A DNA stretch of 64,000 nt from Actinomycetota bacterium (lineage in GTDB: Bacteria > Actinomycetota > Acidimicrobiia > Acidimicrobiales > VFJN01): positions 14,619-78,618 of the forward strand of contig JBKPAA010000039.1 in the NCBI GenBank assembly GCA_046726215.1, in the 5' to 3' direction. The notes below the pieces were generated by a model. That model did not search any database and was not told the origin of the DNA. It saw only the letters and a program-made list of their open reading frames with translations. Position 1 is the stretch's first letter, and each line of letters begins with the position of its first letter. The translations under genes were made by a program, and so were the position numbers. This document shows, one piece after another, positions 31,021 through 57,690 of the stretch.

Positions 31021-31094
31021 GCCCTCGTAGCTCAGGTGGATAGAGCGACCGCCTCCTAAGCGGTAGGCCACAGGTTCGAGTCCTGTCGGGGGCA
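31021..31094 (+). tRNA. tRNA-Arg (anticodon CCT)
   Basis: Manual cloverleaf. Acceptor GCCCTCG/CGGGGGC (one G-U), D arm GCTC-AGGTGGATA-GAGC, anticodon arm ACCGC-CTCCTAA-GCGGT, T arm ACAGG-TTCGAGT-CCTGT, discriminator A. CCA is not encoded. Confidence 0.9.
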
Positions 31095-31146
31095 CCGCGA
31101 AAGTGCCAACTAGATGGCGGCTCGGCCTCGGGAGGCAGGTCGATCG

Positions 31147-31520
31147 TCAGCGGGCGGCGCTCACCGCCTCGGCGACCCGGCGGCGGGCCCGTCCGGGCGC
31201 CGGCAGGGGGTGGCAGACGGCAATGGCCCGCTTGAGGAGCCGGTGGGCGTCGTGCTCGCACGTGTAGCCCGATGCCCCCGAGCACCTGGATGCGGTGCTG
31301 CGCGGCCCGGGATGCGGCCTCGGGTGCCAGCGCCGCCGCCTGGGCCACCATGCCGCGCCCGGCTCGCGGGCGTCGATGCAGCGGGCCGCGTACCAGACCG
31401 CGGCACGGGCCGCCTCCAGATCACCTCGACATGGCCTCGACCATGCGCGCCATCGTGGCCATCGTCGGCGGCGGATCGCCGACGAGTGGGAGGCCGAGCA
31501 CGAGGCCGGCCACCCAACGC
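31147..31520 (-). pseudogene. Acyl-CoA dehydrogenase C-terminal remnant with frameshifts
   Basis: ACAD-like segments are split over two minus-strand frames: GDLEAARAAVWYAARCIDAREPG / MVAQAAALAPEAASRAAQHRIQVLGGIG / GYTCEHDAHRLLKRAIAV. No N-terminal two thirds of the enzyme is present. Confidence 0.5.
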
Positions 31521-31676
31521 TGGAGCGGCTCAGGGCCGCGACGGTCGGCCCGGCCAGGATCGGCTTCGATCGCGACCTGCGCGCCCTTCGGGGAGCACGC
31601 GGTCCAGGGCTGACGAGCGCCTGGCCCGAGCCCGTTGACAGCCGCTGCACTCGTCCGTAGGTTTCGGGCATACCGC

Positions 31677-31690
31677 TGACAACGTTGTCA
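31677..31690. promoter_or_regulatory. LacI-family operator candidate
   Basis: Perfect 14-bp palindrome TGACAACGTTGTCA, centred on CG, ending 38 nt upstream of the LacI-family gene start. Confidence 0.5.
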
Positions 31691-31727
31691 CCGGTCGGAC
31701 CGACGCCCCGGTTGGGGGGTCAAACCC

Positions 31728-32747
31728 GTGGGTGAGCGCCCGACGATCAAGGATGTCGCCGCTGAGGCGGGCGTGAGCCTCAAGACCGTCTCGCGGGTGC
31801 TCAATGGCGAGCACCCGGTTGCGCCCACCACGGCGTTCCGGGTGCTCGCTGCCGTCGAGTCGCTCGGCTACCAGCGGCACGAGGCGGCCGCCAGCCTCCG
31901 CCGGAGCGGTCAGTCGACCTCGATCATCGGTCTCGTCATCGAGGACGTGGCCAACCCCTTCTACTCGGTGCTCGCCCGCGCAGTCGAGGAGGTGGCCCGC
32001 GACAACGACTATCTGCTCATGGTGGCCAGCTCCGACGAGGACCCCGGGCAGGAGATCGAGGTGATCCGGGCATTCTGCGCCCGGCGCGTCGACGGGCTCG
32101 TCGTCGTGCCGACGGGCGCCGATCACTCGTTCCTGCGGGCGGAAGTGGACGCCGGTACGGCGGTCGTCTTCGTCGACCGCCCGCCGGTCGGCCTCGACAG
32201 CGACACCGTGGTGGCGGCCAACGCCCGCGGCACGGCCGACGCGGTCAACCACCTGCTCGAGCAGGGTCATCGACAGATCGGCTACCTCGGCGACGACCCC
32301 GCCATCTACACGGCGGCCGAACGCTACGGCGGCTACCGCCAAGCCCTAGAGGCGGCAGGTGTCGAACTCGACGAGTCGCTCGTGCGGCTGGGCCTGGGCG
32401 ACGTCGCCGCCGCCGAGGCCTCGGCCGACGAGCTGATGCACCGCGCCGACCCTCCGACCGCTCTGTTCGGCGGCAACAACCGGCTCACGATCGGTGCCCT
32501 GCGGGCGAGCCGCCGGAACGGCCGCCGGGTGAGCGTCGTGGGCTTCGACGACTTCGAGCTGGCGGACATGCTCGAGCCCCCGGTGACCGTCGTGTCCCAG
32601 GATGCGTCGGCGCTGGGCCGCACGGCGGCCGAGCTGGTGTTCCGCCGGCTCGGAGGCGACCGCCGTCCGGCGCAGCAGGTGATGCTCGGCACGAGTCTCG
32701 TCATCCGGGGTTCTGCCAGAGTCTCAGCGCAGGGGCCCAAGTCGTGA
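31728..32747 (+). CDS. LacI-family transcriptional regulator
   Basis: N-terminal HTH TIKDVAAEAGVSLKTVSRVLNG plus a periplasmic-binding-protein-like sugar-binding core. Confidence 0.9.
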   Translation: MGERPTIKDVAAEAGVSLKTVSRVLNGEHPVAPTTAFRVLAAVESLGYQRHEAAASLRRSGQSTSIIGLVIEDVANPFYSVLARAVEEVARDNDYLLMVASSDEDPGQEIEVIRAFCARRVDGLVVVPTGADHSFLRAEVDAGTAVVFVDRPPVGLDSDTVVAANARGTADAVNHLLEQGHRQIGYLGDDPAIYTAAERYGGYRQALEAAGVELDESLVRLGLGDVAAAEASADELMHRADPPTALFGGNNRLTIGALRASRRNGRRVSVVGFDDFELADMLEPPVTVVSQDASALGRTAAELVFRRLGGDRRPAQQVMLGTSLVIRGSARVSAQGPKS

Positions 32748-32836
32748 GCTTCGGCCCTGGGACCACCCCGGCGGATGCCGCGACGCTGGTCGCGCCCAGC
32801 CGGCGCTGGTTGGCTCGCGATGGGGGGTCCGGAATT

Positions 32837-32862
32837 CGGCCGCGGCACCAGGGCCGCGGCCG
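32837..32862 (+). terminator. Hairpin between lacI-like gene and SBP gene
   Basis: A 9-bp GC stem cggccgcgg / ccgcggccg with an 8-nt loop. No clear U-tract. Confidence 0.35.
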
Positions 32863-32897
32863 CGACAGCTATCCACCAACCAACAGGGGGTTCCCCG

Positions 32898-34247
32898 ATG
32901 GACCGACTAGCCATCCACATCACCAAGCGGTCGGGCGCGGCTGGCCTGCGACCTCGCCGCTGGCGGCGTGCGCTCGCCTTGGCCTTCGCCGCCCTGCTCG
33001 TCACCGCCACGGCCTGCGGCGACGACGACGATGACGAAGGCGGTGCTGCGGACACCGGAGAGGAGGCGGCCGGCGAGTTCGAGTTTTTCTCCTGGTGGAC
33101 CGGCGGCGGTGACTCCGAGGGCAAGGAGGCGCTGCTCGATCTCTTCCAGAAGCAGAACCCGGACATCGAGATCGTGGACTCGGCGGTCGCCGGTGGCGCC
33201 GGCACCAATGCCCAGGCCGTGCTGGCCGACCGCCTGCTGGCCGACGACCCGCCCGACTCGTACCAGCGACACGCGGGAGCGGAGCTGCTGGCTGACATCG
33301 AGGCCGGGGAGGTCGAGGATCTGACGTCCCTGTGGGAGGATGAGGGCTGGTTCGATGTCTTCCCCGACACGCTGGTCGACATGATCACGGTCGACGACAA
33401 GATCTACTCGGTCCCTGTGAACGTCCACCGGTCAAACCTCATGTGGTACAACCCGGCCGTCCTGGAGGAGGCGGGCATCGCCGCACCCCCGGCCACATGG
33501 GACGAGTTCCTGACCCAGGCCGAGACGCTCGAGGCCGCCGGCAAGGTGCCGCTGACCATCGGGCCGGCATGGACGCAGGAGCACCTGCTCGAGAACGTCC
33601 TGCTCGGCGAGCTCGGGGCGGACGCCTATGCCGGGTTGTGGGACGGCAGCACCGACTGGGAGTCGCCGGAGGTGATCGCCGCCCTCGACACCTACACCGA
33701 GGTGCTGGGCCACACCAACCTCGGTTCGGCCGCCGCCGACTGGCAGCCGGCGCTCGATCCGGTGATCGAGGGCGACGCCGCCTACAACGTGATGGGCGAC
33801 TGGGCCGTGGCGTACTTCGAGACGGAGAAGGGCCTCACGTTCGAGGAGGGCTACAACGTTGCGCTCGCGCCGGGAACCGAAGGCGTGTTCAACTTCCTGT
33901 CCGACAGCTTCACCCTGCCGGTCGACGCGCCGCATCGCGACGTTGCGATCGAGTGGCTGAAGCTCGCCGGCTCCAAGGAGGGCCAGGACACCTTCAACCC
34001 GATCAAGGGCTCGATCCCGGCACGGACCGACCCAGACGAGTCGTTGTACACGGGCTACCTGGCGCAGCCGCTGGCCGACTGGAACAACCCGGACATGACG
34101 GTCGTCGGATCGCTCGCCCACGGGGCGGTGGCCGACAACGCCTGGAAGGCCGAGATCGACTCGGCGCTGGGGGAGTTCGTCGAGAGCGGCGACTCGGCGG
34201 CGTTCGCCTCGGCGGTGAAGCAGGCCTACGAGGACACCCAGCAGTAA
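32898..34247 (+). CDS. Sugar ABC transporter substrate-binding lipoprotein (CUT1 type)
   Basis: Lipobox LVTATAC followed by an acidic linker. FFSWWTGGGDSEGKEALLDLF is typical of CUT1 SBPs. Confidence 0.88.
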   Translation: MDRLAIHITKRSGAAGLRPRRWRRALALAFAALLVTATACGDDDDDEGGAADTGEEAAGEFEFFSWWTGGGDSEGKEALLDLFQKQNPDIEIVDSAVAGGAGTNAQAVLADRLLADDPPDSYQRHAGAELLADIEAGEVEDLTSLWEDEGWFDVFPDTLVDMITVDDKIYSVPVNVHRSNLMWYNPAVLEEAGIAAPPATWDEFLTQAETLEAAGKVPLTIGPAWTQEHLLENVLLGELGADAYAGLWDGSTDWESPEVIAALDTYTEVLGHTNLGSAAADWQPALDPVIEGDAAYNVMGDWAVAYFETEKGLTFEEGYNVALAPGTEGVFNFLSDSFTLPVDAPHRDVAIEWLKLAGSKEGQDTFNPIKGSIPARTDPDESLYTGYLAQPLADWNNPDMTVVGSLAHGAVADNAWKAEIDSALGEFVESGDSAAFASAVKQAYEDTQQ

Positions 34248-34349
34248 CCCCGATCCCGAACCCCCAAGCCTGCGGTGGTCAGGGAGCCCTGCAACCCTGA
34301 CCACCACAGGTTGGACGGTGGGGGTGCCGACCCGCCAGGAGGCACCTGC

Positions 34350-35240
34350 ATGTATCGCATCCGCAAGTGGGGCCCCGCCCTCTTGCTCGTGTCGCCGTCG
34401 TTGGCGGTGCTCGGCGTGTTCGTCTACGGGTTCCTCGGCTGGAATCTCCGGGTGTCGGTGAGCGACTGGCGGGGCTTCCGGCCCACCTACGCCTACTCCG
34501 GCTTGCACAACTACACACGGCTGCAGGACGACTCGCGCTTCACCAACGACGTGACCAATCTCGTCGTGTTCACCACGGTGTTCGTCGTGGGCGCGCTGGT
34601 TGTGGGCTTTCTCCTTGCGGCGTTGCTGGAGCGCGGGGTCAGGGGGGAGGGGTTCTTCCGGGGCGTGTTCCTCTTCCCCATGGCGATCTCGTTCATCGCC
34701 ACCGCCATCGTCTGGCGTTGGCTGCTGAACAACGCCGGCGGCAGTCAGCAGACCGGCTTCAACAAGCTGTTCGACAGCGTGGGGCTGGGTTTCCTGGCCA
34801 ACGACTGGTTCAAGGCCGAGCGACCGTGGGCGGTCGCCGCCGTCGCCATCCCCGCGGGCTGGGCGCTGTCGGGGTACATCATGGCCCTGTTCCTGGCCGG
34901 CATGCGGGGGGTCTCCGACGACCTGCGCGAGGCCGCCCGCGTCGATGGCGCCAACGAGCCGCGGGTCTTCTGGTACGTGGTGCGCCCGATGCTCGTGCCG
35001 GTGCTGATGAGCGCGGTGGTGATCCTGGCCCACATCTCGCTCAAGACGTTCGACCTCATCTACGCCCTCGACCAGGAGAGCCGTCGGATCGAGACACCGG
35101 CGCTCTACATGTGGTTCACGACCTTCGACGGGCTCAACTTCTCGCGGGGCGCCGCCATCGCCACCCTGCTGGTGGCGGGCATCTCCCTGATCATCGTCCC
35201 CTACATCTGGTACTCGATCCGCTCGGAGCGGCGGACGTGA
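34350..35240 (+). CDS. Sugar ABC transporter permease
   Basis: ATG 34350 after AGGAGG. Six TM segments with an EAA-like loop DLREAARVDGAN. Confidence 0.88.
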   Translation: MYRIRKWGPALLLVSPSLAVLGVFVYGFLGWNLRVSVSDWRGFRPTYAYSGLHNYTRLQDDSRFTNDVTNLVVFTTVFVVGALVVGFLLAALLERGVRGEGFFRGVFLFPMAISFIATAIVWRWLLNNAGGSQQTGFNKLFDSVGLGFLANDWFKAERPWAVAAVAIPAGWALSGYIMALFLAGMRGVSDDLREAARVDGANEPRVFWYVVRPMLVPVLMSAVVILAHISLKTFDLIYALDQESRRIETPALYMWFTTFDGLNFSRGAAIATLLVAGISLIIVPYIWYSIRSERRT

Positions 35241-36136
35241 GCGCGCTCACCACCGCTCCCGCGCCCGCACCGTTCCCCGCGCCGACCGGCCCCGCCGACC
35301 GCCCGGCGCGCATCCGCTCGCGCTGGTCGGGGCAGGTCACCACCGCCCGCTACCTGGCGCTGTTCGCCCTGGTCTGCATCTTCCTGATCCCCGTCTACGT
35401 CCTCGTGGTGACGGCGCTCAAAGACCCGACCGAGGTCAGCGTCTCGCAGATGTGGCAGCTCCCCGACTCGCTGTCGCTGGACACGTTCCGCGAGGTGTGG
35501 CCGAAGCTCGAAGACGGCTTCCGCAACAGCCTGGTCATGGCCGTGCCCGCGAGCATCATCTCCTCGCTGCTGGGCGCCGCCAACGGGTTCGTGCTGTCAA
35601 AGTGGCGTTTCCCCGGAGCCGACTTCGTGTTCCCGCTCATCCTCTTCGGCATGTTCATCCCCTACCAGGCGATCCTCATCCCGCTGAACCAGACGATGAA
35701 CAACCTGGAACTGCACAACCTGACCGGCCTGACCCTCGTCCACATCATCTACGGGCTGCCGATCACCACCCTGATCTTCCGCAGCTACTTCGCGGGCATC
35801 TCCGACGAGCTGATGGACGCCGCCCAGGTCGACGGCGCGGGCATGCTGCGCACGTTCGCCTTCGTGGCCCTGCCCATCGCCCTGCCGGCGTTCGCGGTCT
35901 CGATGATCTGGCAGTTCACGTCGGCGTGGAACGACTTCCTCTTCGGGGTGGTGCTCACGTCGGCCGGCGACTGGCCGGTCACGGTCGCGCTCAACAACAT
36001 CGCCGGCAGCCAGGTCGTACCGTTCCACGAGGCGATGGCCGCAGCGCTGCTGGCGAGCATCCCGACCCTGATCGTCTACGTGCTGGTCGGGCGGCTGTTC
36101 ATGCGTGGGCTCATGGCGGGCGCGCTCAAGGGGTAG
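35237..36136 (+). CDS. Sugar ABC transporter permease
   Basis: GTG 35237 overlaps the upstream TGA (GTGA). EAA loop ELMDAAQVDGAGMLRTF. Confidence 0.88.
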   Translation: MSALTTAPAPAPFPAPTGPADRPARIRSRWSGQVTTARYLALFALVCIFLIPVYVLVVTALKDPTEVSVSQMWQLPDSLSLDTFREVWPKLEDGFRNSLVMAVPASIISSLLGAANGFVLSKWRFPGADFVFPLILFGMFIPYQAILIPLNQTMNNLELHNLTGLTLVHIIYGLPITTLIFRSYFAGISDELMDAAQVDGAGMLRTFAFVALPIALPAFAVSMIWQFTSAWNDFLFGVVLTSAGDWPVTVALNNIAGSQVVPFHEAMAAALLASIPTLIVYVLVGRLFMRGLMAGALKG

Positions 36137-36140
36137 CGAG

Positions 36141-37364
36141 ATGGAAGAGACGGTCGACCAGTCCACGACGCAGGCGGAGGCCCCCGACGCCGAGGCCCCG
36201 GTGATGGCCCGCGAGCCCGTGGGCATCCGGTTGGAGAATGTGACCAAGCGCTTCCGCGGCGGCGTGGAGGCGGTCCGCGACCTGTCCCTGACGGTGGAAG
36301 CGGGCGAGTTCATCGTGCTGGTCGGGCCGTCGGGGTGCGGCAAGTCGACGGTGCTGCGCCTGATCGCCGGCCTCGAGGAGCTGACCCGCGGCCGCATCTA
36401 CCTCGGCGACAAGGACGTCAGCACGCAGCTCCCCCAGCACCGGGACGTGGCGATGGTGTTCCAGAGCTACGCGCTGTACCCGCGGATGTCGGTCCGCCGA
36501 AACATGGGCTTCGGGCTGCGCATGCGCCGGACGCCCAAGGCCAAGCGCAACCGGCGCGTCGCCGAGGTCGCCAGGACGCTCGGTCTCGAGGACCTGCTCA
36601 ACAGGCGCCCGGCAGCCCTCTCCGGCGGCCAGCGCCAACGGGTCGCCATGGGGCGGGCCATCGTGCGCGAGCCGCGTGTCTTCCTGATGGACGAGCCGCT
36701 GTCCAACCTCGACGCCAAGCTGCGGGTCAGCATGCGCGCCCAGCTGTCGCTGCTCCACCAGCGGCTCGGTGTGACGACCGTCTACGTGACCCACGACCAG
36801 GTCGAGGCGATGACGCTCGGCCAGCGGGTCGCCGTGCTGCGCGACGGCGTGCTGCAGCAGTACACGACGCCGAAAGAGCTGTTCCACAACCCCGTCAACC
36901 TGTTCGTCGCCGCCTTTATCGGCTCGCCGGCGATGAACTTCGTCCACGCGACGGTGGCGGGCGGAGCGGCGAGGTTCGCGGACGTGACGCTGCCGCTGCC
37001 CGCTGGCTCGTCCCTCGCTGTCGCCGACCGGCGCGTGGTCCTCGGTGTCCGGCCGACCGGCTTCTCGCCGGCGTCGGACAACGGCTGGCCCGGGCTGGAC
37101 GCGGTCCCCGAGGTGGTCGAGGAGCTCGGCGACGAGCGCTACGTAGTCTTCGACATCGACGCCCCGCGGGTCGACACCGACGCAACGAGGGCGGCCGTCG
37201 ACGCCCGAGCCGACGACGCCCTACTGCTGCCCGAGGATCGGGCCCGGTTCACTGTCCGGCTGCCCACGGAGGTCCACGTGGCGGTCGGCAAGCCCCTGTC
37301 GCTGACCATCAACCCGGAGCGCGTCCACTTCTTCGACCCTGACACCGGCGAGGCACTGGCCTGA
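36141..37364 (+). CDS. Sugar ABC transporter ATP-binding protein (MalK/UgpC/MsiK-like)
   Basis: Walker A GPSGCGKST, signature LSGGQRQRVAMGRAI, Walker B FLMDEPLSNLD, and a C-terminal TOBE-like domain. ATG 36204 is an alternative start. Confidence 0.9.
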   Translation: MEETVDQSTTQAEAPDAEAPVMAREPVGIRLENVTKRFRGGVEAVRDLSLTVEAGEFIVLVGPSGCGKSTVLRLIAGLEELTRGRIYLGDKDVSTQLPQHRDVAMVFQSYALYPRMSVRRNMGFGLRMRRTPKAKRNRRVAEVARTLGLEDLLNRRPAALSGGQRQRVAMGRAIVREPRVFLMDEPLSNLDAKLRVSMRAQLSLLHQRLGVTTVYVTHDQVEAMTLGQRVAVLRDGVLQQYTTPKELFHNPVNLFVAAFIGSPAMNFVHATVAGGAARFADVTLPLPAGSSLAVADRRVVLGVRPTGFSPASDNGWPGLDAVPEVVEELGDERYVVFDIDAPRVDTDATRAAVDARADDALLLPEDRARFTVRLPTEVHVAVGKPLSLTINPERVHFFDPDTGEALA

Positions 37365-37530
37365 GGGCGATTCACATTGGGCGCTGTGGCGGGCCGGGGG
37401 CGTGCTCACCGACGAGATCTCGACCACCGCGCTCACTGTCGGCCTGCGGACGGCGGCCGGCTCTTGGCTCGACGATCGCACCGACGCTGGCTGCCTACTC
37501 ACGCTTGCGGCCGAGACCTGTGGTGGGCCG

Positions 37531-37725
37531 AGGTGCAAGAACAGGTGCAATACACCAGCGGAATCCATGGACGTGGCGTCACCTGATGGAGGCTTCCGCC
37601 GACGACAACCAGCTCAGCGGACTGGAGCCGATGCCCTGGACGATCGGCCGCAGTCTGCTAGGCGGTAGGCCGCAGGTTCGAGTCCTGCCGGGGGCACCAC
37701 AAAAGTGCTGGTAGATGTGGGTTTC
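37531..37725 (+). repeat. att-like module A (left arm + diverged tRNA-Arg 3' half)
   Basis: Left arm with aggtgcaagaacaggtgcaat and gacgacaaccagctcagcgga..cctggacgatcgg. tRNA-like segment 37655-37699 (ctgctaggcggtaggccgcaggttcgagtcctgccgggggcacca), followed by the aaagtgctggtagatg flank. Confidence 0.75.
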
Positions 37726-38462
37726 CGAGCGCCGATGGCCTTGCGGAGTCGCGAGGGCTGGACCACTAGACTGCCGCTAGACAGCTCGCCGACGGCTCGA
37801 TGGTGTCGCAGACTGGCGGTCGCAGGACCGAGCGGATCGTCGCGTGGGGCGCTAACAGCGCGCTGTCCGCGCTAGCGGGCGACACCGTCCGGTGGTTGAG
37901 ATCGCTGATCCAAGCCGCCAGCCCGGGTCGCACACGTGAGCTGCCGCTTCGTGCGCCTGTGGATCGCTCGACGGAGGAGATGGTGAGCCGCTGCGCGGAG
38001 TAGCCCATCAAACACAGATGCGTTCGGTGCGCACCCTCGACAGCCGGGGGCCGGCCGTTTTGTCGCGGCGTTCTGTGTTCGGAAAACAGGCCCGAGATGG
38101 CTCGTCCTCGAGCAGCTGGGCAGGGCTTCGGCATCCGGCTTGTTTGCGTCATCGACCAAGCCCGGAGACCAGCCGGTGATATCAGCCGCTGCAGTCGCAG
38201 TCGCACGGAGGCCTTCCGTACTTCGATAAGAGGTTTGCGTAGATTGTGCTGCTGGAAATGGTCAGCGCGGTTTCGGGGCCCGGATTTCGGCATTGACGGG
38301 AAAGAATGGGCGTCACTACGCTCGGCGGCGTCGCCTTCGCGGGGATGTCTTCATGCGCATCTCATCACGCGACATTCCGGAGTCGGTCAGCAATGCCTTG
38401 GCCAGACCACGCGCGGTGACGCCAACTGCCGTGATTCACCGGTCTTCCAAGGAGGTCGAGTC

Positions 38463-40922: not shown

Positions 40923-40929
40923 CCCACCA

Positions 40930-40973
40930 GGGTGGGAGTCGCCGCGTCAACCCTTGCGCGGCGACTCCCACCC
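40930..40973 (+). terminator. Strong hairpin after the GH3 gene
   Basis: Perfect 17-bp stem gggtgggagtcgccgcg / cgcggcgactcccaccc with a 10-nt loop, beginning 8 nt after the stop codon. Confidence 0.7.
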
Positions 40974-40979
40974 ACTTGG

Positions 40980-47168: not shown

Positions 47169-47228
47169 ATGCTGGGACCACCCCTGATCCATTGATCGGC
47201 ACCGCGTCCGGGTGCACGGTGCCAAGAG

Positions 47229-48005: not shown

Positions 48006-48190
48006 CGGCGCGGCGCGCCGGCAGCCCGCGAGGCATGAACGCAACCGGGTCAACGCCAAAGGAATCACCTTCAACCAGACCGAGCACCGCGGTTTCACCG
48101 TCTTCATCGCCGACCGACGAGGAAGGCGGTACCTCAGCGTCGGGAGGAGAGCCCGTACATGGAGACTCTGGCTGAATCGGAGGAGGAGAG

Positions 48191-48655: not shown

Positions 48656-48866
48656 TCGGGACGAGCAACCGACGAGTAGGACGCGAGTTCTTTCCCTGGC
48701 GGCTCTTGGGTGCTGATCGCGGTCGCGGTCTCGATCCTCGCCGCAGGCGCAGCCCGCGGCTCCGACAACCACTAGATGCGCTCCCGACCGCAGTCTTCGG
48801 GAGAGGAGGGATGCCTCTAGCACAGCTGCTCAGGGGAGCGCGTGCACCAAAGAAGGGAGTTACGAC

Positions 48867-49478: not shown

Positions 49479-49553
49479 CGGCGCCTGAGGAAGGCCGGGC
49501 AGCCCGGGCCGCCCAGCGATGGATGGCCCCGGGTCCCGCGCCCCCAGCCGTCC

Positions 49554-50529
49554 TTGTCTTGGGAGTGGGACGTCTTCGCCGACGGAGACACTTGGCCCGG
49601 GATGAGGACGGCGGCGCTTCTGACGGCGCTGGGTGACGGGCGAATAGCCACCGCGGCCGGATTGTTTGACCGCGGGGTGACGGTTTCGGTCGGCCGAGCG
49701 CTCAACACGAAGGGGGGCATAGACAACCCCGAGCCGCCCATCACGAGATGATCATGCTGACCGACGTCGACATCGGATCCGGAAGCGTGCGCTTCGCCAA
49801 GGACTACGTCGGCGTCGGCTACCACAACGAGGGGCACAGCCACATCGACGCCTGCTGTCATGTCGTGTACGACGGCATGCTCTATGGAGGAGTCCCCGAT
49901 GCAGAGGTCACCTCCCGAGGGGCGGTGGCCGGCGCGATCGACCTGCTGCGCGATGGCCTGGTCGGTCGCGGGGTGCTCCTCGACATACCCGGCGTCCGAG
50001 GCGTCCGCTGGCTCGACCCTGGCGAGCACGTGTTCGCCGACGGCCTCGACGCAGCAGAGAGGGCGCAGGGCGTCAGCGTCGAGGCCGGCGACGTCCTCCT
50101 CGTCCGCACCGGACACGCGCACGGTCTCACCGAGCTTGCGCCGTGGGACACGAGCAAGCGCAAGGCCGGCCTGCACCCGAGCGCGGCCCGATTCCTCACT
50201 GGCCGACGCGTCGCCGCGCTCGGATCCGATGGAAACAACGACACGGCCCCGAGCACCACCGAAGGGGTTGCGTACCCGATCCACGTCCTTGCGCTCAACG
50301 CCATGGGATCCACCTGCTCGACTACTTGCAGTTCGAGAACCTCGTCCTGTGGTGCGAGGCGGCCGAGCGGTGGGAGTTCCTCGTCGTCGCCTCCCCGCTG
50401 CGAATCGAGGGCGGGACCGGTTCGCCGGTCAACGCGATCGCGATCCTCTGCCACATGTTCATCGGCCGCGACGTTCGAGCCGTCGCGGGCCACGTGGAGG
50501 CAGAAAGACCGGCTCACACGTCCGGATAG
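49554..50529 (+). pseudogene. Putative-cyclase-family (kynurenine-formamidase-like) gene with two frameshifts
   Basis: Protein-like sequence runs through three frames. Frame 0 reads to about 49735 (..KGGIDNPEP), frame 2 reads (AAHHEMIMLTD..HSHIDACCH..PIHVLALNAMG) to about 50305, and frame 1 reads (IHLLDYLQFENL..GGTGSPVNAIAIL..). Both shifts occur at short G/C runs. Confidence 0.6.
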
Positions 50530-50768
50530 ACGAGCACGGGGATCATGCCTCGCGGGGCGTGACCCGGTCGCGGAGCCTTCCGGCGGAGTAGGGCGCCTCA
50601 CCCGCGGCGCGTGCCCTCAAACCCTTCACCGGTTCGCATCCGATTCGGATCTTGACGCCGAATGCATGTGGGATGGTGGCAGGCAATGCGACCTGCGGAA
50701 CCACCATCGCCGTAACGAAGCCCCAGAGCGGCCCGGCAGCGCGTCCGGGTGGAAGCCAGGGAGAGACC

Positions 50769-52160
50769 ATGGCGGCTGACTTCGCATGTGACCCTGCGAA
50801 CGACATGACCCGTAGGCGATTCCTGGGGAGAGCCGGCGTCGCTGCGGGGGGAACGGCATCGCTGGCGATGCTGGGTCCGGCTCCTGTCGGTCGGGCGTTG
50901 ATCGCCGGAGGCCAATGGCGCGACCGTCCGGAGGAGTTCAACGCCGCCGTGCCCAGGGCGTGGTTCGACCTGTCCCGGACCTTGGTGAGGACGACCCCCG
51001 GGTTCACTCCGCCGGTGGCATCGCGTGCCTTCGCGTACATCGGAGTGACGCTCTACGAGGCGGTCGTGCCCGGATCCCGCCGGCACCGGTCCCTCCGGCG
51101 GGTGCTGCCTGGTCTGCACGTCAGGCAGAGCGCTGGTCATGACCTGCACTGGCCGACGGTGGCGAACTCGGCCCTCGCCTCGATGATGCGGCTGCTGTTC
51201 CCGACCACCAGCGATGGCAACAAGGCTGCCATCGACGCGCTCGAGGCGTCCTTCGCCGACCGATCTCGGCGCCGGGTGAAGCGATCGACCCTGAGCCGTT
51301 CGGTCGACCGCGGTCGATCGGTGGCCCTGACCGTCTTCGAGTGGTCGAGCACCGATGGTGGCCACGACGGCTACCTGCGCAACTTCCCTGCCGACTACGT
51401 GCCCCCGGTCGCGCCCGGGTTGTGGGTGCCGACACCGCCGGCGTTCCAGCCCGCCCTCCAACCGTTCTGGGGCAAGAACCGGTGCTTCGCCATCCCCTCG
51501 GGCGCAGCCTGCCCGCCCGCGCCTCCCACGGCCTACTCCGAGGACCCCTCGTCCCGCTTCTTCGCCGAGGCACGCGAGGTCTACGACGCGGTGAACAATC
51601 GCACGCCGGACCAGGAAGCCATCGCCCTGTTCTGGTCGGATGACCCGGGCGTGACCGCCACGCCGCCGGGCCACTCGGTGTCGATCGCGACCCAGGTCCT
51701 CCGGCTGGAGCGGGCGTCGCTCATGGAAGCCGCCGAGACGTACGCCAAGGTCGGATTGGCGGTCGCCGATGCCTTCATCGCCTGCTGGTACGCCAAGTAC
51801 CGGTACAACCTGGTGCGCCCCGTCACCTACATCCAATCGCTCATCGACAGCGACTGGCTGCCGCTGCTCACCACGCCCCCGTTCCCGGAGCACACGTCCG
51901 GACACTCCGTCCAGTCCGGTGCGGCGTTCCAGGTGCTCGCCGACCTGTTCGGTGACCGGTACTCCTTCGACGACCACACCCACGATGAGCGTGGCCTTGC
52001 CCCTCACCACTTCGACGCCTTCAGCCAATGTGCCGACGAGGCCGCCATCTCCCGCCTTTACGGGGGGATCCACTTCCGACCGGCGATCGACGCCGGGTTG
52101 GCACAGGGGCGCTGCATCGGCCGAACCGTCAGCTCACTCCCGTTCCGCCGCCGTCGTTGA
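50769..52160 (+). CDS. TAT-secreted PAP2-superfamily / vanadium-haloperoxidase-like enzyme
   Basis: Twin-arginine signal MTRRRFLGRAGVAAG. PAP2 motifs KYRYNLVRP, PEHTSGHS and SRLYGGIHFRPAID. Confidence 0.85.
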   Translation: MAADFACDPANDMTRRRFLGRAGVAAGGTASLAMLGPAPVGRALIAGGQWRDRPEEFNAAVPRAWFDLSRTLVRTTPGFTPPVASRAFAYIGVTLYEAVVPGSRRHRSLRRVLPGLHVRQSAGHDLHWPTVANSALASMMRLLFPTTSDGNKAAIDALEASFADRSRRRVKRSTLSRSVDRGRSVALTVFEWSSTDGGHDGYLRNFPADYVPPVAPGLWVPTPPAFQPALQPFWGKNRCFAIPSGAACPPAPPTAYSEDPSSRFFAEAREVYDAVNNRTPDQEAIALFWSDDPGVTATPPGHSVSIATQVLRLERASLMEAAETYAKVGLAVADAFIACWYAKYRYNLVRPVTYIQSLIDSDWLPLLTTPPFPEHTSGHSVQSGAAFQVLADLFGDRYSFDDHTHDERGLAPHHFDAFSQCADEAAISRLYGGIHFRPAIDAGLAQGRCIGRTVSSLPFRRRR

Positions 52161-52199
52161 GGGCCTCCCGTCGCGGTCCAGTAGGAGCTCGGCCACGGC

Positions 52200-53095
52200 G
52201 ATCAGCTCCTCGTGAGCCTCGAAGCCGAACCCGATACGGAACAGCCGTCGAGCATCTCCTCCACGCTCAGTGGCCGTGCTGTAGATGCCGGCGGGCAGCG
52301 GCCCACGACCCAGCCACCGCGCCCCAGACCCCAGAGCGCGGTCAGCAACCCGTAGCCCACCGTTCCAGCATTGAAGTGGTCGGCCAGCGGCAAGTCGGCC
52401 ACAAGGGTCAGCCCGAAGGCGGCGAAGCTCACAGTGGTGACGGCCACCAGCCGTCGCAGCGACCGGTCGTGGGCGACGACGCGGGGGCCCACCACGATGC
52501 CAGTCACCCGCAGGTGCATTCCACGACGGCCCGGCCGCTCCGCCGGGAGCCGGCTGAGCAACGCCGCCGACGCCAGATACGAACCTGCATTGACCAATGA
52601 ACACTGCGTCAATGCCGGAGGCGGCGACCGGTGTGCCCCCGACGAGCGGCCCGACGACCAAGGCGGCGTTGAACGACCCCGCGACGATGCCGTTCGCCTA
52701 CGTCAGATCGTTGTCGTCGACGAGGCTGGGAATCGTCGCTGCGGACGCCGCCCGGAACGGTGGCCTCGCTGCCGCAGTCGCCAAGGCCTGCGCCACCAAC
52801 AGCCACGGCGCATCGACCGCGAGCACGCCGACCCATATCACGCCGGCGGCCAGCTCGCTCGTGATCATCAAGCGACGTCGGTCGAACCGGTCGCCGATCC
52901 ATCCCGAGACTGGACCCAGAAGACCCGTGACGGCCACCAACGCAGTGCGGCGGACACCCAGGCGGAAGAGCCGGTGCCCTGATAAATCGTGTAGATGAGC
53001 GCCACCTGCGCAGCCTGCGGCCCCGCCACCGACACAAGACGAGCACCGGCGAGCAAACCGACCGCCCGCCGTCCAGGGTCGGGCGCGTGCCGCAT
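52200..53095 (-). pseudogene. MFS transporter disrupted by several frameshifts
   Basis: MFS-like segments lie in at least three minus-strand frames: ..LLAGARLVSVAGPQAAQVALIYTIY.. / ..GPVSGWIGDRFDRRRLMITSELAAGVIWVG.. / ..VNAGSYLASAALLSRLP.. Confidence 0.6.
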
Positions 53096-53750
53096 GCTGA
53101 CCTCGGTCACGCGGCAAGGATTGCCTTCGCGTGCCCAAGGGCCCGCCCGGTGGGGCACATCAAGGCGGCAGAACGGAACACACTCGCACAGAACTGGCGA
53201 CGAGATCTCCGCCGGCCGCTCGCGGAACCGCGGCCCGTGCCGACGGCTGCCTGACGCTCGTCATGCCCCGTACTGACGGCAACCGATATGGGGCCGGAAG
53301 TGACTCATCGAAGGCCGTCGAACGGCAGGGGCGTCGGTCGAGCGGAGCGTGGCTTCGGCGTGCCCTGTGGGCACTTGCTCGCTTGAGCCGAGCCGGTCCC
53401 AGAAGAGGATTCAATCGGGGCGCACATGCAACGGTGCGGTCGGCCAGCCGAGCCGTCCCCGAGGCTCTGACGCGGACGGCCCCGCAGCGGCAGGTAGGAG
53501 CGCAGATTCGGTGTGATCTGGAGGGGGCCCGCCGCAATGGGGTGCGCGGCAATCGCGCCTGCCAGCGGGATCAAGCGACGGCCGATCATCAGACGCCGGT
53601 TGTGACGTACCGCCAAATACCGGATCGGGGCTGAGTGCTGTCAGCCTCGGATCACACCAGCGTCAGCGGTAGCGCCCAACGCTGGCGGGTTGCCGATCTT
53701 GCTCACGATGGACTCGGCAAGTCCGCAGAACCCCGCATCATTTCGGCTGT

Positions 53751-54030
53751 CAGGTGCAAGAGCAGGTGCAATGGTCCAGCGAAACCCACGGACTCGGTGG
53801 CACTCCGTGGACGACGTCGCTGGCGACAGCCAGCTCAGTGGACTGCAGGGGACCGCCTGGACGATCGGCCACGGTCTCCTAAGCGGTAGGCCGCAGGTTC
53901 GAGTCCTGCCGGGGGCACCGCGAAGGTGCTGATAGGTGGTGTGAAGCGCGCCGAGGCGACAGACTCAGGTGCAAGTGCAGGTGAAATGCCTGGTGGTCGG
54001 TACGCCTCGTCGCCTCGTCGGTACGCCTCG
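53751..54030 (+). repeat. att-like module C (left arm + tRNA-Arg 3' half + right arm)
   Basis: Left arm caggtgcaagagcaggtgcaat ... gacagccagctcagtgga..cctggacgatcgg. Core 53876-53919. Right arm caggtgcaagtgcaggtgaaat plus two tcggtacgcctcg repeats. Confidence 0.75.
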
Positions 54031-54194
54031 CTGGTCGGTCATGCGCTCGCGTGCACTCGCTGACGGTTGCTGGGTGGGTGATGCTGCAGGCCTCCTTCCC
54101 GGTCTATGTCCCTAGGCCACGTTCTCGCCGAGACATCGCGAGATTTCGGGGGCCGGTCGCGGTGACGACGGCGGGCTGCCTGTGCTGGGGTGGG

Positions 54195-56645
54195 TCAGAA
54201 TGGCTCGTTCCCGGCGCGGTCATTGGGGGCCTGGCTGGGGGCGGGCCCGTGGCGGTGCGAGGGCCGGGGCGGCCGGGGCAGGGTGAAGCCAAGGGTGGCG
54301 TAGGCCCGGCGGCGCTCGTTGTGCATGCGAGCGAGCACCGGGACACGGGTGTCGACGTAGTCGTGGACCTCGACGCGTGTCTTGGTGTCGGTCGGGCGGA
54401 GGACGCGGCCGACGTACTGGATGACGCTGCCTTTGAACTTGATGGGGAAGGCGAGGAACAGGGTGTCGAGGGGTGGGCAGTCGAAGCCTTCGCCGAGCAG
54501 GCTGGCGGTGGCGGCGAGTACGAGGCCTTCGTCGGGTGAGGGGTCGGCGAGGCGGTCGATGACCACCGTGCGAGCCTTCTTGCCCATGTCGCCGTGTAAG
54601 ACAAGGGGATCGATGCCCAGGGTGGTCAGGTCCTGGGCGATGGCGTCAAGGTGTTCCTTCCAGCGGGTGAGCACGATGCAGTTGCGACGGGCGTGGGCGG
54701 CGGCAGCGATGTCTTGACAGATCGCCGTGGTGCGTTGTCGGTCCTCGACAAGGCCGCGGAAGACCGCCTGGATGTGCTGGCCGTCATCGGTGTCTTCGTG
54801 GTCGGTCTCGTGGACCACGAGGTCGAGGGCTCGCAGCGCGCTTCCGGACGGGGTGGTCATGGTGTGGCGCACCGGTCCGCAGTGCATCGCCATCAGCGCC
54901 TGGAGTCCGTCCCGCCGGTACGGCGTCGCGGTCAGTCCCGCCCACCGACGGACCGGGATCTGGCGTACCGCGCGCTCGAAGGTGACGGCGGGGACGTGGT
55001 GACATTCGTCGACGATGACCAACCCATAGCGCCCGGCCAGCTCGGCGATGTCGTCACGGCGGGCGACGCTTTGCACCATTGCCACATCGACGATGCCCGT
55101 GGCGCGGCGGCGGCCACCGCCGAGCTGGCCGATCTGTCGGGCGCTGAGATCTAGGTGGGTGGTGAGCCGGTCGCGCCATTGTTCGACGAGTGGCTTGCGG
55201 TCGACGATCACGAGGGTCGGTACCTTGTGGCGGGCGATGAGAGCGCAGCCGATCACGGTCTTGCCCGACCCGGGCGGCGCTACGAGCATTCCCATGTCGT
55301 GGGCGGCTATGGCGTCGGTGGCAGCGGTCTGGTCGGGCGTCAAGTCGGCCTGCAGCTGGACGTCAAGGGTGGCCACCTCGGGGCAGCCGTCGACGACCTT
55401 GAGGCGGCTCCCTGCCTCGTCGACCAGAGTTTCGGCTTGTTGGCGCAGCCCTCGGGGGAGCAGCAACTGGTCGAGTGTCTCCTGGTAGCAGCGGATGAAC
55501 CGTGGTGTGTTCCACGTCGAGAAGCGCAGCCTCTCCTTCTCGTGGAACTCGGGGTTGTGCAGCGAAGCCAGGTGCTTGAGCGCCGCGAGCAGCGCGGGCG
55601 GGATCCCGATCCGGTCGACACTCAACATCGCGCCAGCGAGGGCAACGATCTGCGCCGGGGGCCTCGCGGTCGGCTGGTCGCGGGCGGGCCGCCGGTAGGT
55701 GGAGGCGTCAGGCCCGGTCGCCAGATCCCCCAACGCCTTGGCGAGCGCATTCGCAGATTCGGTGCTGAGACGCTCGAGCTGGGCGAGGAACGTCCACTGG
55801 TCCTCGACGGGTTCGAGGCTGGTCGGGTCGAGGAACACGGTGGTGCCGCGCTGGCGACAGTCCCGCTGCAGTGGCAACGCAATGAGGTTGCCGAACGAGC
55901 CCTTAGGCATGAAGTCCTGGGCGGGGAACAGACGGTCATAGCTGCCCAGGTCGAGCTCGGCTCGGACCGTCATCGCTTCCCGTAACATGCCGACACCGAT
56001 CCGCCTCGCTGAGGCGGCCGGGACAGGTGCGGCAAAGAACATCCACACATGCCCGCCGTCACCCGACCGCGAGCGCTCCAGCGCGGCATCGATGCCGGCG
56101 GACCGGGCGGCATCCAGGTAGGCCAACGCGTCGAGGACCCATCCAGGCCCGTCGAAGTCACACGCCAACAGCCGGCAGGCATCGCCCCGCATGAGTGGGT
56201 AGAGGCCCGCGTGGATCTCACCCGCCAGATGTCGCGCGACGACGTCGTCAGTGAGGGGCAGGTGCTCGCGGTCGGGGCGGCGGGCGTTGCGCCACCCACC
56301 CCGCACGGCCGGACTCCATCCCGCCTTGCCGGTTCGCTCGTTCTCCCACCGCAATGCATGCACATCGTCGCGCCCTGCGAACAACGATCGGAACAGCGCG
56401 AGCTTCGCCTCGCGCGGCGAGCTGCGGTCGATCTCGGCCCACTTGGACATCGGCTCTGCCCGATCGGGAAACAGCGACGGCGACCAGGCCGCGGTGGGTC
56501 CCTCACCGATGCGAGTTGGGTCTTCGAGTCCCAACAGCCGACGCAGTCGGGCATTCTCGGCGCGAAGCTGCGCCAGCTCGGCGTGCAGCGCTGTTGCCTC
56601 GGCGATTGCGGCATCCGCCTCAACAGCCCTACGCGCAGCGGTCAC
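54195..56645 (-). CDS. Archaeo-eukaryotic primase (AEP)-like domain fused to an SF2 (DEAD/DEAH-type) helicase
   Basis: N-terminal coiled coil. AEP motifs LLACDFDG (DxD), SRSGDGGHVWMFF (sGxGxH), YDRLFPAQD..GSFGNLIALPLQ. Helicase motif I APPGSGKT, II VIVDECHH, III GLTATP, VI QYVGRVLR. The GTG start overlaps the upstream stop. Confidence 0.9.
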   Translation of the reverse strand: MTAARRAVEADAAIAEATALHAELAQLRAENARLRRLLGLEDPTRIGEGPTAAWSPSLFPDRAEPMSKWAEIDRSSPREAKLALFRSLFAGRDDVHALRWENERTGKAGWSPAVRGGWRNARRPDREHLPLTDDVVARHLAGEIHAGLYPLMRGDACRLLACDFDGPGWVLDALAYLDAARSAGIDAALERSRSGDGGHVWMFFAAPVPAASARRIGVGMLREAMTVRAELDLGSYDRLFPAQDFMPKGSFGNLIALPLQRDCRQRGTTVFLDPTSLEPVEDQWTFLAQLERLSTESANALAKALGDLATGPDASTYRRPARDQPTARPPAQIVALAGAMLSVDRIGIPPALLAALKHLASLHNPEFHEKERLRFSTWNTPRFIRCYQETLDQLLLPRGLRQQAETLVDEAGSRLKVVDGCPEVATLDVQLQADLTPDQTAATDAIAAHDMGMLVAPPGSGKTVIGCALIARHKVPTLVIVDRKPLVEQWRDRLTTHLDLSARQIGQLGGGRRRATGIVDVAMVQSVARRDDIAELAGRYGLVIVDECHHVPAVTFERAVRQIPVRRWAGLTATPYRRDGLQALMAMHCGPVRHTMTTPSGSALRALDLVVHETDHEDTDDGQHIQAVFRGLVEDRQRTTAICQDIAAAAHARRNCIVLTRWKEHLDAIAQDLTTLGIDPLVLHGDMGKKARTVVIDRLADPSPDEGLVLAATASLLGEGFDCPPLDTLFLAFPIKFKGSVIQYVGRVLRPTDTKTRVEVHDYVDTRVPVLARMHNERRRAYATLGFTLPRPPRPSHRHGPAPSQAPNDRAGNEPF

Positions 56646-56935
56646 GGCGGCCCAACGATCTCGAAGGCCGGGTGACCTCCCATCGCCCCCATGGTGGCCG
56701 AGTCGAGGTGCCGCGTCGAAGCATGCCCGGACGCCAGGCCGTCCGGCGCGTCACCAGATCCGAAGGCAAGTAGGTGGCCACCGAGCTCCGCGCCCGCCAA
56801 GTCGTCATGGCTGACGATGACTACAACCAGCTCGCTGATCGCACGATCGCCGAGGGAGTGAACCGTCACGCCTCGAACCGCCGTGTTCCCCGCCCTGACA
56901 TGCCGCAATACGTCGGTCTCGGTTCGGCCGATCAA
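56642..56935 (-). CDS. Hypothetical protein (97 aa) translationally coupled to the AEP-helicase
   Basis: TTG start. Third-position GC is clearly higher than in the competing plus-strand ORF 56774-57079. Its stop overlaps the helicase GTG (GTGA). No recognisable motif. Confidence 0.4.
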   Translation of the reverse strand: MIGRTETDVLRHVRAGNTAVRGVTVHSLGDRAISELVVVIVSHDDLAGAELGGHLLAFGSGDAPDGLASGHASTRHLDSATMGAMGGHPAFEIVGPP

Positions 56936-57006
56936 GTCTCCGCGAAGGACGTCATCGACGAGCGCGGCAGACGCGCCTCGAGACGGCTCCTGCGTGGAGC
57001 TCCACT

Positions 57007-57192
57007 CTACCTGGCTCTGGCTCGATACTCCTCAAGGGCGTCCGCAGGAATGTGGGCGATGCCGTTGACCATCACGTAGCGGAGCTCGTGCTGGTAGATG
57101 AGTCGGATGATCTCGCGCGTAGAGACGCCTAGGCGCCGAGCCGCCTCGGACGCCCGCAGCGGCTCAGTGGTTGTCTGGTCCCGGCCAGTCAT
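57007..57192 (-). CDS. Excisionase/MerR-like helix-turn-helix DNA-binding protein (61 aa)
   Basis: LRASEAARRLGVSTREIIRLIYQHELRYVMVNGIAHIPADALEEY fits the Xis-type HTH_17 pattern. Confidence 0.7.
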   Translation of the reverse strand: MTGRDQTTTEPLRASEAARRLGVSTREIIRLIYQHELRYVMVNGIAHIPADALEEYRARAR

Positions 57193-57370
57193 CGAATCCA
57201 AGCTTATGGCTCAGGATGCGGATCTGATGTTCGACAGTGACGACGAGGCTGAGTTGGTTGGCGGTGATGAGCGCGTCACGGGCGTCGTCGAGGTCGGCGA
57301 GCAGCGCGAGTGCCTCGTCGAGTTCGTACCAGACTTGACGAGGCGGCTCTCGCCGGGCCGGATCGCTCAT
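57164..57370 (-). CDS. Small hypothetical protein (68 aa)
   Basis: ATG 57370 is the first gene inward from att-like module D. Helical, acidic sequence (YELDEALALLADLDDARDALITANQL). Confidence 0.5.
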   Translation of the reverse strand: MSDPARREPPRQVWYELDEALALLADLDDARDALITANQLSLVVTVEHQIRILSHKLGFDDWPGPDNH

Positions 57371-57416
57371 CAGGTGGAACCTAGTCACGGTCGCGGCCGT
57401 CAACCTGCGGTCGGGC

Positions 57417-57690
57417 CAGGTGCAATAGCGGGTGCAATACTTCAGCGCAGTCCGTGGACTCGGCCACACGGGATGAATGATCTGGCCGACGACACCCAGC
57501 TCAGCGGACACCAGCGAACGCCCTGGACGATCGGTCACGGTCTCCTAAGCGGTAGGCCGCAGGTTCGAGTCCTGCCGGGGGCACCGTTGCCGGGGGCACC
57601 GCGAAACTGCTTGTGAGGGCGCTACGGCTTCGTTGGGAGGTGAACCGTCAGGTGCAGTACACATGTCGGTACGCCCGTAGGCCCAGGGAT
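57417..57690 (+). repeat. att-like module D (left arm + tRNA-Arg 3' half with internal duplication + right arm)
   Basis: Left arm caggtgcaatagcgggtgcaat ... gacgacacccagctcagcgga..cctggacgatcgg. Core 57542-57600, containing a duplicated gccgggggcacc separated by gtt. Right arm caggtgcagtacac and cggtacgcc. Confidence 0.75.

Follow-up and report, generated by a model that had tools for sequence, protein, structure and literature searches.

How a single tRNA gene comes to be followed by several copies of its own 3′ half, spaced out between gene modules, is the question raised by the locus described here. It lies in a stretch of 64,000 nucleotides (contig JBKPAA010000039.1, positions 14,619 to 78,618; referred to below as the window) of an uncultured high-GC actinobacterium whose best matches are metagenome-assembled genomes (MAGs) of the Acidimicrobiales/Acidimicrobiia. 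From about 31 kb to the end of the window, and thus to at least 64 kb, an island of 33 kb with at least five gene modules is anchored at an intact tRNA-Arg(CCT) gene, and partial copies of this gene, designated A to D, stand at the module boundaries. Very probably, elements of one integrase family were integrated serially and site-specifically at tRNA-Arg(CCT), followed by deletional decay to modules that resemble cis-mobilizable elements (CIMEs). The original prediction, in which the array had been taken for a hotspot of serial integration, is supported by the analysis.

The tRNA-Arg(CCT) array and its attachment units

The sole tRNA of the window is the tRNA-Arg(CCT) gene, which was located on the forward strand by ARAGORN (31021-31096) and by Rfam (RF00005, 31021-31094, 67.8 bits); no other RNA family reached its gathering score across the whole window. 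The gene forms the anchor, that is, the attL-type end, of the array. A 23-nt motif of its T arm and acceptor stem, GGTTCGAGTCCTGYCGGGGGCAC, is present in five copies, all of them on the forward strand (31073, 37675, 43882, 53896, and 57562), while 0.02 copies would be expected by chance according to shuffled sequences. Apart from the intact gene, these copies mark the partial tRNAs A (37655-37699), B (43862-43904), C (53876-53919), and D (57542-57600), which are oriented as the tRNA itself; their limits follow from the motif together with reading of the sequence. Motif and profile searches revealed neither further copies of the 3′ half on either strand of the window nor attachment (att) units in the 31 kb of core DNA upstream of the tRNA. 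One intact gene and four partial copies, as had been predicted at these positions, is therefore the correct count.

All four partial copies start exactly at the anticodon loop, and the 5′ half of the tRNA is absent from every one of them. In B, C, and D, the loop reads CTCCTAA, and A has CTGCTAG instead, which confirms the earlier reading; at the junction orthologous to A in the related contig L138, the loop is still CTCCTAA. The four halves have GCAGG/CCTGC as their T stem and the intact gene has ACAGG/CCTGT, with pairing kept in both, and a 3′ flank of about 25-30 nt (CACCGCGAAAGTGC..TAGATGG) is common to all five copies; on both points, the alignment agrees with what had been claimed. In copy D, the acceptor 3′ strand carries a 15-nt tandem duplication (GCCGGGGGCACC). 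Tandem duplication of this strand, G(C/T)CGGGGGCACC, with a period of 14-20 nt is seen in three independent att units, namely, copy D (57573-57600), the core of L127, and L131a (position 5080 on the reverse strand).

The tRNA-derived core (O) of each partial copy is preceded by a conserved left arm (P), which is unrelated to the DNA upstream of the tRNA gene itself, and the right arm is designated P′. For both arms, separate profiles were prepared, that of the P arm from 14 units. The P profile matched in full length at A, C, and D (E = 6e-57 to 2e-60); the corresponding P arms are situated at 37523-37654 (A, E = 6e-57), 53751-53875 (C, E = 2e-60), and 57417-57541 (D), all of them, like the remaining parts of the units, on the forward strand. 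At B, only the proximal approximately 150 positions of the profile were matched (E = 1e-15), the P arm of this copy (43740-43861) being a diverged variant that is colinear with those of A, C, and D; at the intact tRNA, the match was confined to the core. The P′ profile matched in full length at B (43905-44051), C (53920-54035), and D (57601-57717), with E = 9e-18 to 3e-26, and at A with its positions 1-46 only (E = 9e-6), where a truncated stump is left (37700-37733). The left arm that had been assigned to A, C, and D, and the right arm that had been assigned to B, C, and D, are thus common to these copies, with the amendment that B also bears a diverged left arm and that 46 nt of the right one are left at A. 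Both profiles match at C and D, which had been interpreted as P-O-P′ junctions; B has to be added as a third junction of this type, and A consists of P-O and a truncated P′ arm. The flank of the intact tRNA (31097-31125, about 29 nt, forward strand) is read from the alignments as the proximal stump of a P′ arm; the distal part of P′ and any integrase are missing.

In the 14-unit alignment, conservation of the P arm starts abruptly at the first CAGGTGCAA, and the DNA further to the left is unrelated between loci. The conserved positions fall mainly into two CAGGTGCAA(T) sites, a set of three direct RTGGACGATC repeats, and one CCAGCTCAG block. The P arm of A contains paired GAGGTGCAA/CAGGTGCAA and one TGGACGATC site; within the 64 kb, exact TGGACGATC has just three occurrences, which are placed identically in the P arms of A, C, and D. 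The left arm of B is without the CAGGTGCAA pair, and the same diverged variant is present in the related contig L135 (74% identity over 168 nt by blastn), with further matches in L128, L132, and L137. The RTGGACG(ATC) direct repeats, which according to the alignment occupy 37570-37650, 53790-53870, and 57455-57535, are flanked by the outer CAGGTGCAA sites on one side and by the core on the other, with successive gaps of about 20 and 50 nt. By analogy, the RTGGACGATC repeats are candidate sites for an excisionase or another accessory protein.

The P′ arm is laid out differently: AGGTGTACC is followed by a spacer of about 10-25 nt, then by GGTGCAGTACACC (GGTGC(A)GTACACC), and finally by two or three direct GGTACACC repeats. 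In the window, these elements appear as GAGGTGTACC, CAGGTGCAGTACACC, GGTACACC, and GGTATACC at B, as CAGGTGCAAGTGCAGGTGAAA and two GGTACGCC repeats at C, and as AGGTGAACC, CAGGTGCAGTACAC, and GGTACGCC at D. Cross-matches between the P and P′ profiles are due to the same CAGGTGCA motif, which is found in both arms. The pattern SRGGTGCAR occurs 16 times in the window (6.2 expected), with ten of the 16 sites inside arms, and GGTAYRCC occurs 13 times (4.4 expected); seven of these 13 matches fall within P′ arms and represent six sites, one palindromic site being counted on both strands.

The possibility left open by the original prediction that the conserved arms belong to a known structured RNA was rejected, since Rfam gave no match and RNAalifold, applied to 14 P arms, gave no covariation support (covariation term +0.43; compensatory pairs 1/36). 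A separate proposal, according to which a split tRNA would have left its degenerate D arm in the CCAGCTCAGCGGAC block of the P arm, is unsupported; no tRNA is recognized there by ARAGORN or Rfam, and the spacing does not fit.

The integrase family and related loci

Approximately 230 bp downstream of copy B, a pseudogene of a tyrosine integrase is found (44133-45205, forward strand; Pfam HNH_3). Its translation comprises the N-terminal 60% of such an enzyme and stops shortly after the GMRRGEL box, at about residue 343 of 559-amino acid relatives; the C-terminal catalytic 216 amino acids are absent. With the closest full-length relative, P0001 (93% identity), as a tblastn query, only residues 9-343 were covered. 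A 1-nt deletion is present at codon 8 (GATCGGT-CGAG versus GATCGTTTCGAG in L001; window 44133-44160), and because of it the annotated ORF (open reading frame) starts at an internal GTG at 44165. The integrase beside B had been described as truncated, which its translation confirms. A second remnant, expected near 63075-63176, was found by tblastn at 63047-63175 on the forward strand; its 43 codons correspond to residues 183-225 of the integrase beside B (72% identity). This fragment would be the trace of a sixth element, the att site of which is undetectable by the profiles; in a profile scan, no further degenerate att units were found near it. As to the statement that pseudogenes are frequent between the copies, the check covered the two integrase remnants only.

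Homologues of the integrase originate from metagenomes, and the named ones belong to Acidimicrobiales or other actinobacterial MAGs. P0001 matches the phrog_1 integrase (E = 4.9e-32), and comparison with NCBIfam gave weak XerC/D-like matches only. No member of the family was found in the collection of viral contigs; searches of the phage and plasmid collections gave matches solely for the N-terminal HNH_3 domain, with no close match to the integrase, and no solved structure is related to the family by sequence.

Intact integrases of this family are located about 130-230 bp downstream of tRNAs in the contigs L001, L004, L005, and L006, the targets being tRNA-Arg (L001, L005), tRNA-Thr (L004), and tRNA-Gln (L006). 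The spacer between tRNA and integrase has the same P′ layout as the arm at B in L005 and L006; L001 contains a variant of this layout, and L004 contains a variant repeat, GGTAAACC. Since the P′ repeats are found with integrases of the family at different tRNAs, they go with the integrase family and not with the target tRNA. The original prediction had regarded the repeats as plausible arm-type integrase sites. This view is strengthened by the recurrence of the same layout at integrase-linked tRNA-Arg and tRNA-Gln loci, where the P′ repeats appear to behave as would be expected of such sites. In L127, a P-O-P′ unit is likewise followed by the start of an integrase. Shorter tyrosine integrases of 319 and 397 amino acids are found in or beside related arrays (L143, 17549-18508; L147, 12956-14149), from which it follows that the use of tRNA sites in these genomes is not confined to a single integrase family.

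A P arm of about 150 nt with 76-86% identity to those of A, C, and D recurs in 12 further loci, and in all of them it stands directly before the 3′ half of tRNA-Arg; 11 are metagenome contigs recovered with a search pattern that ran from the proximal part of the left arm into the anticodon loop, and one is a species-representative MAG (L046), which was obtained separately. A loose arm-site pattern, GGTGCAANNNCNGGTGCAAT, applied across genome contigs gave about 120 mostly chance matches, with L046 as the sole true relative. To the right of the core, the situation is more varied: a full P′ arm with an integrase remnant is present in L127, and a full P′ arm without integrase in C, D, and L133; P′ is clipped in A, L046, L129, and L132, and unrelated DNA follows the core in L131, L134, and L137.

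L001/L002 represent a genus-level relative. Their flanking proteins are 81-95% identical to those of the window core genes and occur in the same order (peroxiredoxin, cation efflux protein, kinase, regulator, M20 peptidase, tRNA). The tRNA-Arg(CCT) is there directly followed by a P′-like region, an intact 561-amino acid integrase, and an HTH_17 excisionase-like gene. Other contigs share single segments with the window. L138/L139 match window positions 31614-37714, comprising a sugar operon, the left arm of A, and core A, at 93% identity; both flanks differ, the left one containing a GH3 paralogue and the right one an extracytoplasmic function (ECF) sigma factor. The same junction A is found in L129/L130 with a third distinct right flank. 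The module between C and D (module 4) occurs at 95% identity in the 90-kb contig L143, inside an array of three tRNA halves, the other modules of which (LuxR/P450; helix-turn-helix/glyoxalase) are absent from the window. At 86% identity, module 4 is present in L144-146, together with two small genes, between two att units. Further arrays of two or three units, with a spacing of 3.7-4.4 kb, are contained in L131, L143, and L144. Neighbouring att units within L143 have similar right arms.

None of the relatives repeats the set and order of the five copies; L001/L002, L138/L139, L129/L130, and L143 all differ from the window and show presence/absence variation of segments at the same junctions, which is in line with the original prediction. 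The extent of shared sequence at two junctions is informative as to which module an arm belongs to. At junction A, the left arm is 86-96% identical to that of L138, and identity falls to about 0.5 directly after the core; at junction D, the left arm and its orthologue in L143 are 98-100% identical, and the value falls to about 0.45 directly after the core. From these breaks it is concluded that the P arm and core belong to the left-hand module, as the integration model predicts.

Probable serial integration, decay, and competing readings

Taken together, the locus has an intact target gene at one end and same-strand repeats of its 3′ part at the boundaries; a tyrosine integrase adjoins an att site, as a pseudogene at B and intact in relatives; and the internal junctions are of the P-O-P′ type at B, C, and D, with P and a P′ stump at A. 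This is the architecture of a tRNA-anchored island of tandem accretion. In the proposed pathway, each element would encode a large tyrosine integrase of about 559 amino acids with an N-terminal HNH_3-like DNA-binding domain, and would carry an attP of about 300 bp composed of P arm, core, and P′ arm. The P arm (about 150 nt) would provide the CAGGTGCAA(T) site twice and the RTGGACGATC site as three direct copies; the core would copy the tRNA from the anticodon loop to the 3′ end; and the P′ arm (about 110-150 nt), with its GGTGCAGTACACC and GGTACACC repeats, would lead into the integrase gene reading away from the tRNA. Upon integration, a working tRNA would be restored with the copy brought in by the element, and the older 3′ half would be displaced outward together with the DNA behind it. 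If the target were already occupied, the new junction would be P-O-P′ and thus attP-like. We infer the order of the integration events and, by analogy, a crossover within the anticodon loop, binding of the integrase to the arm repeats, and binding of an excisionase to the RTGGACGATC/TGGACGATC repeats. Later decay would have proceeded by deletion, with integrases lost or truncated, P′ clipped at A and at the tRNA flank, and core A mutated; the outcome would be cargo modules bounded by att remnants, that is, CIME-like units. Signs of decay are visible in the doubly disrupted integrase, the 63-kb fragment, the P′ stumps at A and at the tRNA, and the mutated core A. Because the only integrase of the window is a pseudogene, the array looks frozen.

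Several observations weigh against serial integration followed by decay. No attR was found downstream of the tRNA within about 5.8 kb in L001, 3.1 kb in L002, and about 12 kb in L004-L006, and for this reason a complete two-ended element has not been recovered. No trace of an integrase 5′ region above shuffled controls follows the complete P′ arms of C and D, so that integrase loss at these junctions has to be assumed. Genes for an excisionase, a relaxase, or transfer were not found in the window: a Pfam scan that covered, from 28.5 to 64 kb, the 30 ORFs with the greatest length or the best support gave no FtsK/TraB-type, RepSA, or relaxase domain, and tblastn gave no remnant of the excisionase, the relaxase, the 884-amino acid neighbour gene, or the other integrases of the related loci. 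The constant presence of the P arm in the related loci is partly true by construction, as the search pattern contained part of that arm. The sugar operon of module 1 is found in L142 (9944-15596) at 80% identity without an att site. The base composition of this module also fits poorly. GC content changes from 0.72-0.74 before about 37 kb to 0.63-0.69 thereafter, and GC3 (GC content at third codon positions) is 0.91-0.92 in core genes and 0.76-0.85 in most genes after copy A, with the RibD_C gene (0.91) as an exception; in module 1, GC3 is core-like (0.90-0.96). The lower codon GC that had been predicted for the DNA between the copies is accordingly seen in most genes after A, while the first module does not share it.

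A further point concerns junction C. When window positions 53751-54035 were compared with the reverse complement of L143 (9556-9840), the C att unit was 54-78% identical, whereas the DNA from 54040 rightward was 96-98% identical. This pattern is not predicted by a simple model in which P′ belongs to the right-hand module. It seems that the C att unit was replaced, exchanged, or converted in one lineage, independently of the modules. Among the related loci, no empty tRNA-Arg site was recovered.

Of the competing explanations, the one that survives best, although it is considered unlikely, regards the array as an active cassette platform. Modules of 3-10 kb without an integrase of their own, but with complete attP-like sites of about 300 bp, would be moved by an integrase acting in trans; they would form circles by core-to-core recombination and be reinserted at tRNA-Arg, in an integron-like manner or like cis-mobilizable elements. 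The att sites would be selectively maintained, and the primase-helicase module (module 4) would be a replicating satellite. Modules are indeed small (3.6-10 kb) and carry mostly ordinary cargo in the window as well as in L131, L132, L143, and L144, and full P-O-P′ units without integrase or scar are present at C and D and in L133, L143, and L144. The ORF of module 4 is intact (800-816 amino acids) in the window and in the four closest homologue clusters, which share 86-97% identity and stem from different metagenome samples; the module has different neighbours in different contigs, and P arms are well conserved even where integrases have been lost. Different neighbours would, however, also result from insertion and deletion around a vertically inherited module. 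The truncated integrase at B and the fragments at 63 kb and in L127 indicate that some modules of such arrays are decayed autonomous elements, and the clipping of P′ at different points (A, L046, L129, L132), together with the mutated core A, resembles neutral decay. The P′ arm of C was not inherited with module 4, contrary to what core-to-core movement between the window and L143 would entail, and neither a circular form nor a trans-acting integrase was observed in the window.

Far less probable is the view that the P-O-P′ unit has nothing to do with integration and is a self-spreading dispersed repeat, comparable to a miniature inverted-repeat transposable element (MITE), or a gene for a structured noncoding or tRNA-like RNA. 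A unit of about 280-300 nt does recur in many contigs at 76-86% identity. Yet strand orientation is uniform among the copies of the window and among those of every multicopy locus, those of the window lie downstream of the tRNA with none in the 31-kb core, and the units always hold an exact tRNA 3′ half with T-stem pairing. P′ arms adjoin intact integrase genes; the conserved positions form short direct repeats typical of protein-binding sites, and a structured RNA is disfavoured by the lack of an Rfam match and of covariation. The weakest explanation, by which several same-strand copies of one tRNA sequence would be decayed tandem duplications of the tRNA region without any mobile element, can be dismissed, because every copy starts at the anticodon loop and none has a 5′ half, the conserved arm to the left is unrelated to the upstream region of the tRNA, the intervening segments are mutually unrelated and differ between relatives, and integrase remnants are present.

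Module cargo, significance, and known systems

Upstream of the tRNA, the core genes identified by Pfam encode a response regulator and an M20 peptidase. Between the tRNA flank and the start of homology to L138 at 31614, there is an orphan segment of about 490 nt (31126-31613, no strand assigned), in which long ORFs run on both strands; neither of them matches a Pfam family. Unless stated otherwise, the cargo genes listed below were assigned by Pfam. Module 1 (31614-37522, forward strand; 93% identity to L138/L139) is a sugar-transporter operon encoding a LacI regulator (31728-32747), a solute-binding protein (32775-34247), a permease (34275-35240), and a MalK-type ATPase (36105-37364). A second permease is inferred for the open frame 34367-36136 from the gene called in L138, independently of the Pfam scan. 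In L138/L140, the sugar operon is preceded by a divergent GH3 gene that is missing from the window.

Module 2 (37734-43739, mixed or unassigned strand) contains the gene for a GH3 glycosidase (38097-40922; GC3 0.76), small ORFs, and the gene for a RibD_C-domain protein (42666-43307, reverse strand). The GH3 glycosidase is only 33-37% identical to the GH3 proteins of L138/L140. In module 3, the integrase pseudogene is followed by cargo at 45206-53750 (likewise without a single strand), which includes unannotated ORFs besides the genes for a hybrid histidine kinase (45447-47027, reverse strand), a response regulator (47229-48005), a cyclase-family protein (49748-50779), and a PAP2-domain protein (50652-52160). 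Module 5 (57718-63046, no strand assigned) consists of small ORFs and the gene for a 972-amino acid protein (58088-61006), in which a weakly matched adenylate/guanylate cyclase domain is combined with a STAND/AAA NTPase and TPR repeats. Encoded just behind junction D, this protein may be island cargo with a role in signalling or in a conflict system.

Module 4 (54036-57416, reverse strand) comprises one intact gene between two att units and no integrase. The gene (54195-56645, reverse strand) encodes an 816-amino acid fusion of a PrimPol-type archaeo-eukaryotic primase (AEP) and a superfamily 2 (SF2) helicase (Pfam AEP-TOTE, E = 1.8e-75; ResIII; Helicase_C). PADLOC returned PrimPol and helicase matches only and no defined defence system. 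Homologues number 7659 proteins at E <= 1e-50. In distant contigs, a gene of this type is found at tRNA-Met with a different integrase (397 amino acids) and at tRNA-Leu with HTH_17 and PIN genes. The occurrence of the primase-helicase in other tRNA-linked elements marks it as a hallmark of the integrative elements of this group.

The building of islands by tandem accretion is already well known, and the present locus is a clean example of it that adds no new principle unless the modules without integrase prove to be mobile. It is unusually legible, as every junction keeps readable arms of a recombination site, its arm motifs can be linked with large tyrosine integrases of a so far uncharacterised family, and modules can be traced into other genomes in which they have different neighbours. 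What is obtained is a concrete attP model with site positions, spacing, and candidate sites for integrase and accessory proteins, which could be of use as an integration tool for a poorly tractable group. The P arm joined to a tRNA half may serve as a marker for finding such islands in metagenomes. Should the cassette interpretation be true, an integron-like system of gene capture would have been built on a tRNA gene and lambda-type sites.

As regards known systems, the array differs from integrons in that its junctions are about 300 bp long and consist of a tRNA half and arms with direct repeats; a conserved hairpin was not seen at them, and the integrase is weakly XerC/D-like in NCBIfam. Integrative and conjugative elements of actinomycetes (AICEs) of the pSAM2 and SLP1 types reside in high-GC actinobacteria, integrate into the 3′ part of tRNA genes, and possess a tyrosine integrase beside attP, an excisionase, and a replication protein. 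The host, the 3′ part of a tRNA as the target, and a tyrosine integrase beside attP are shared with these elements; an FtsK/TraB-type transfer gene, Spd genes, and RepSA were not found in the window, which is therefore not assigned to the AICEs. Genomic islands at ssrA of Dehalococcoides are reportedly arranged in tandem at one small-RNA gene, with direct repeats of its 3′ end and strain-variable cargo. Tandem islands bounded by direct repeats of the 3′ end of the target are common to both cases; in Dehalococcoides, the target is the transfer-messenger RNA (tmRNA), the repeats are short, and the integrase belongs to a different family.

The attP of lambda combines arm-type and core-type sites with sites for accessory proteins in the P arm. 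The units described here resemble it in their size of about 300 bp, in a short motif that is present in both arms and distinct from the core, in an integrase with a separate N-terminal DNA-binding domain, and in a second direct repeat (RTGGACGATC, three times), which the P arm contains on the core side of its outer sites. They differ in that motifs and integrase are unrelated in sequence to those of lambda, that the N-terminal domain is HNH_3-like according to Pfam, and that the sites are predicted ones.

In the tycheposons of Prochlorococcus, incoming elements displace older ones and leave fragmented integrases and partial tRNAs behind; their hallmark genes are those for integrase, excisionase, and primase/helicase, accompanied by cargo (bioRxiv 10.1101/2020.12.28.424599). 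Island growth with scattered partial tRNAs and integrase fragments is common to both, a likeness that lies in the architecture as described in the text of that report; the host in the present case is an actinobacterium and not a cyanobacterium, and it is for this host that the conserved 150-nt P arm with its defined repeats is documented. In terms of process, the window fits the model of tandem accretion and CIMEs, in which integration, decay, and renewed integration are the three steps and for which ICESt1/ICESt3 of Streptococcus thermophilus serve as the example (PMC5704250). The window differs from ICESt1/ICESt3 in host lineage and integrase family; it is without a conjugation module, its target is a tRNA, and long lambda-like arms are found on both sides of the junctions. 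As in CIME accretion, elements apparently accumulated serially at the 3′ end of a single target gene, with att sites between them, and older members have kept these sites while losing the genes for integration and transfer. Module 4, which lies between C and D with full att units on both sides and no detected integrase or scar, exemplifies this retention of att sites.

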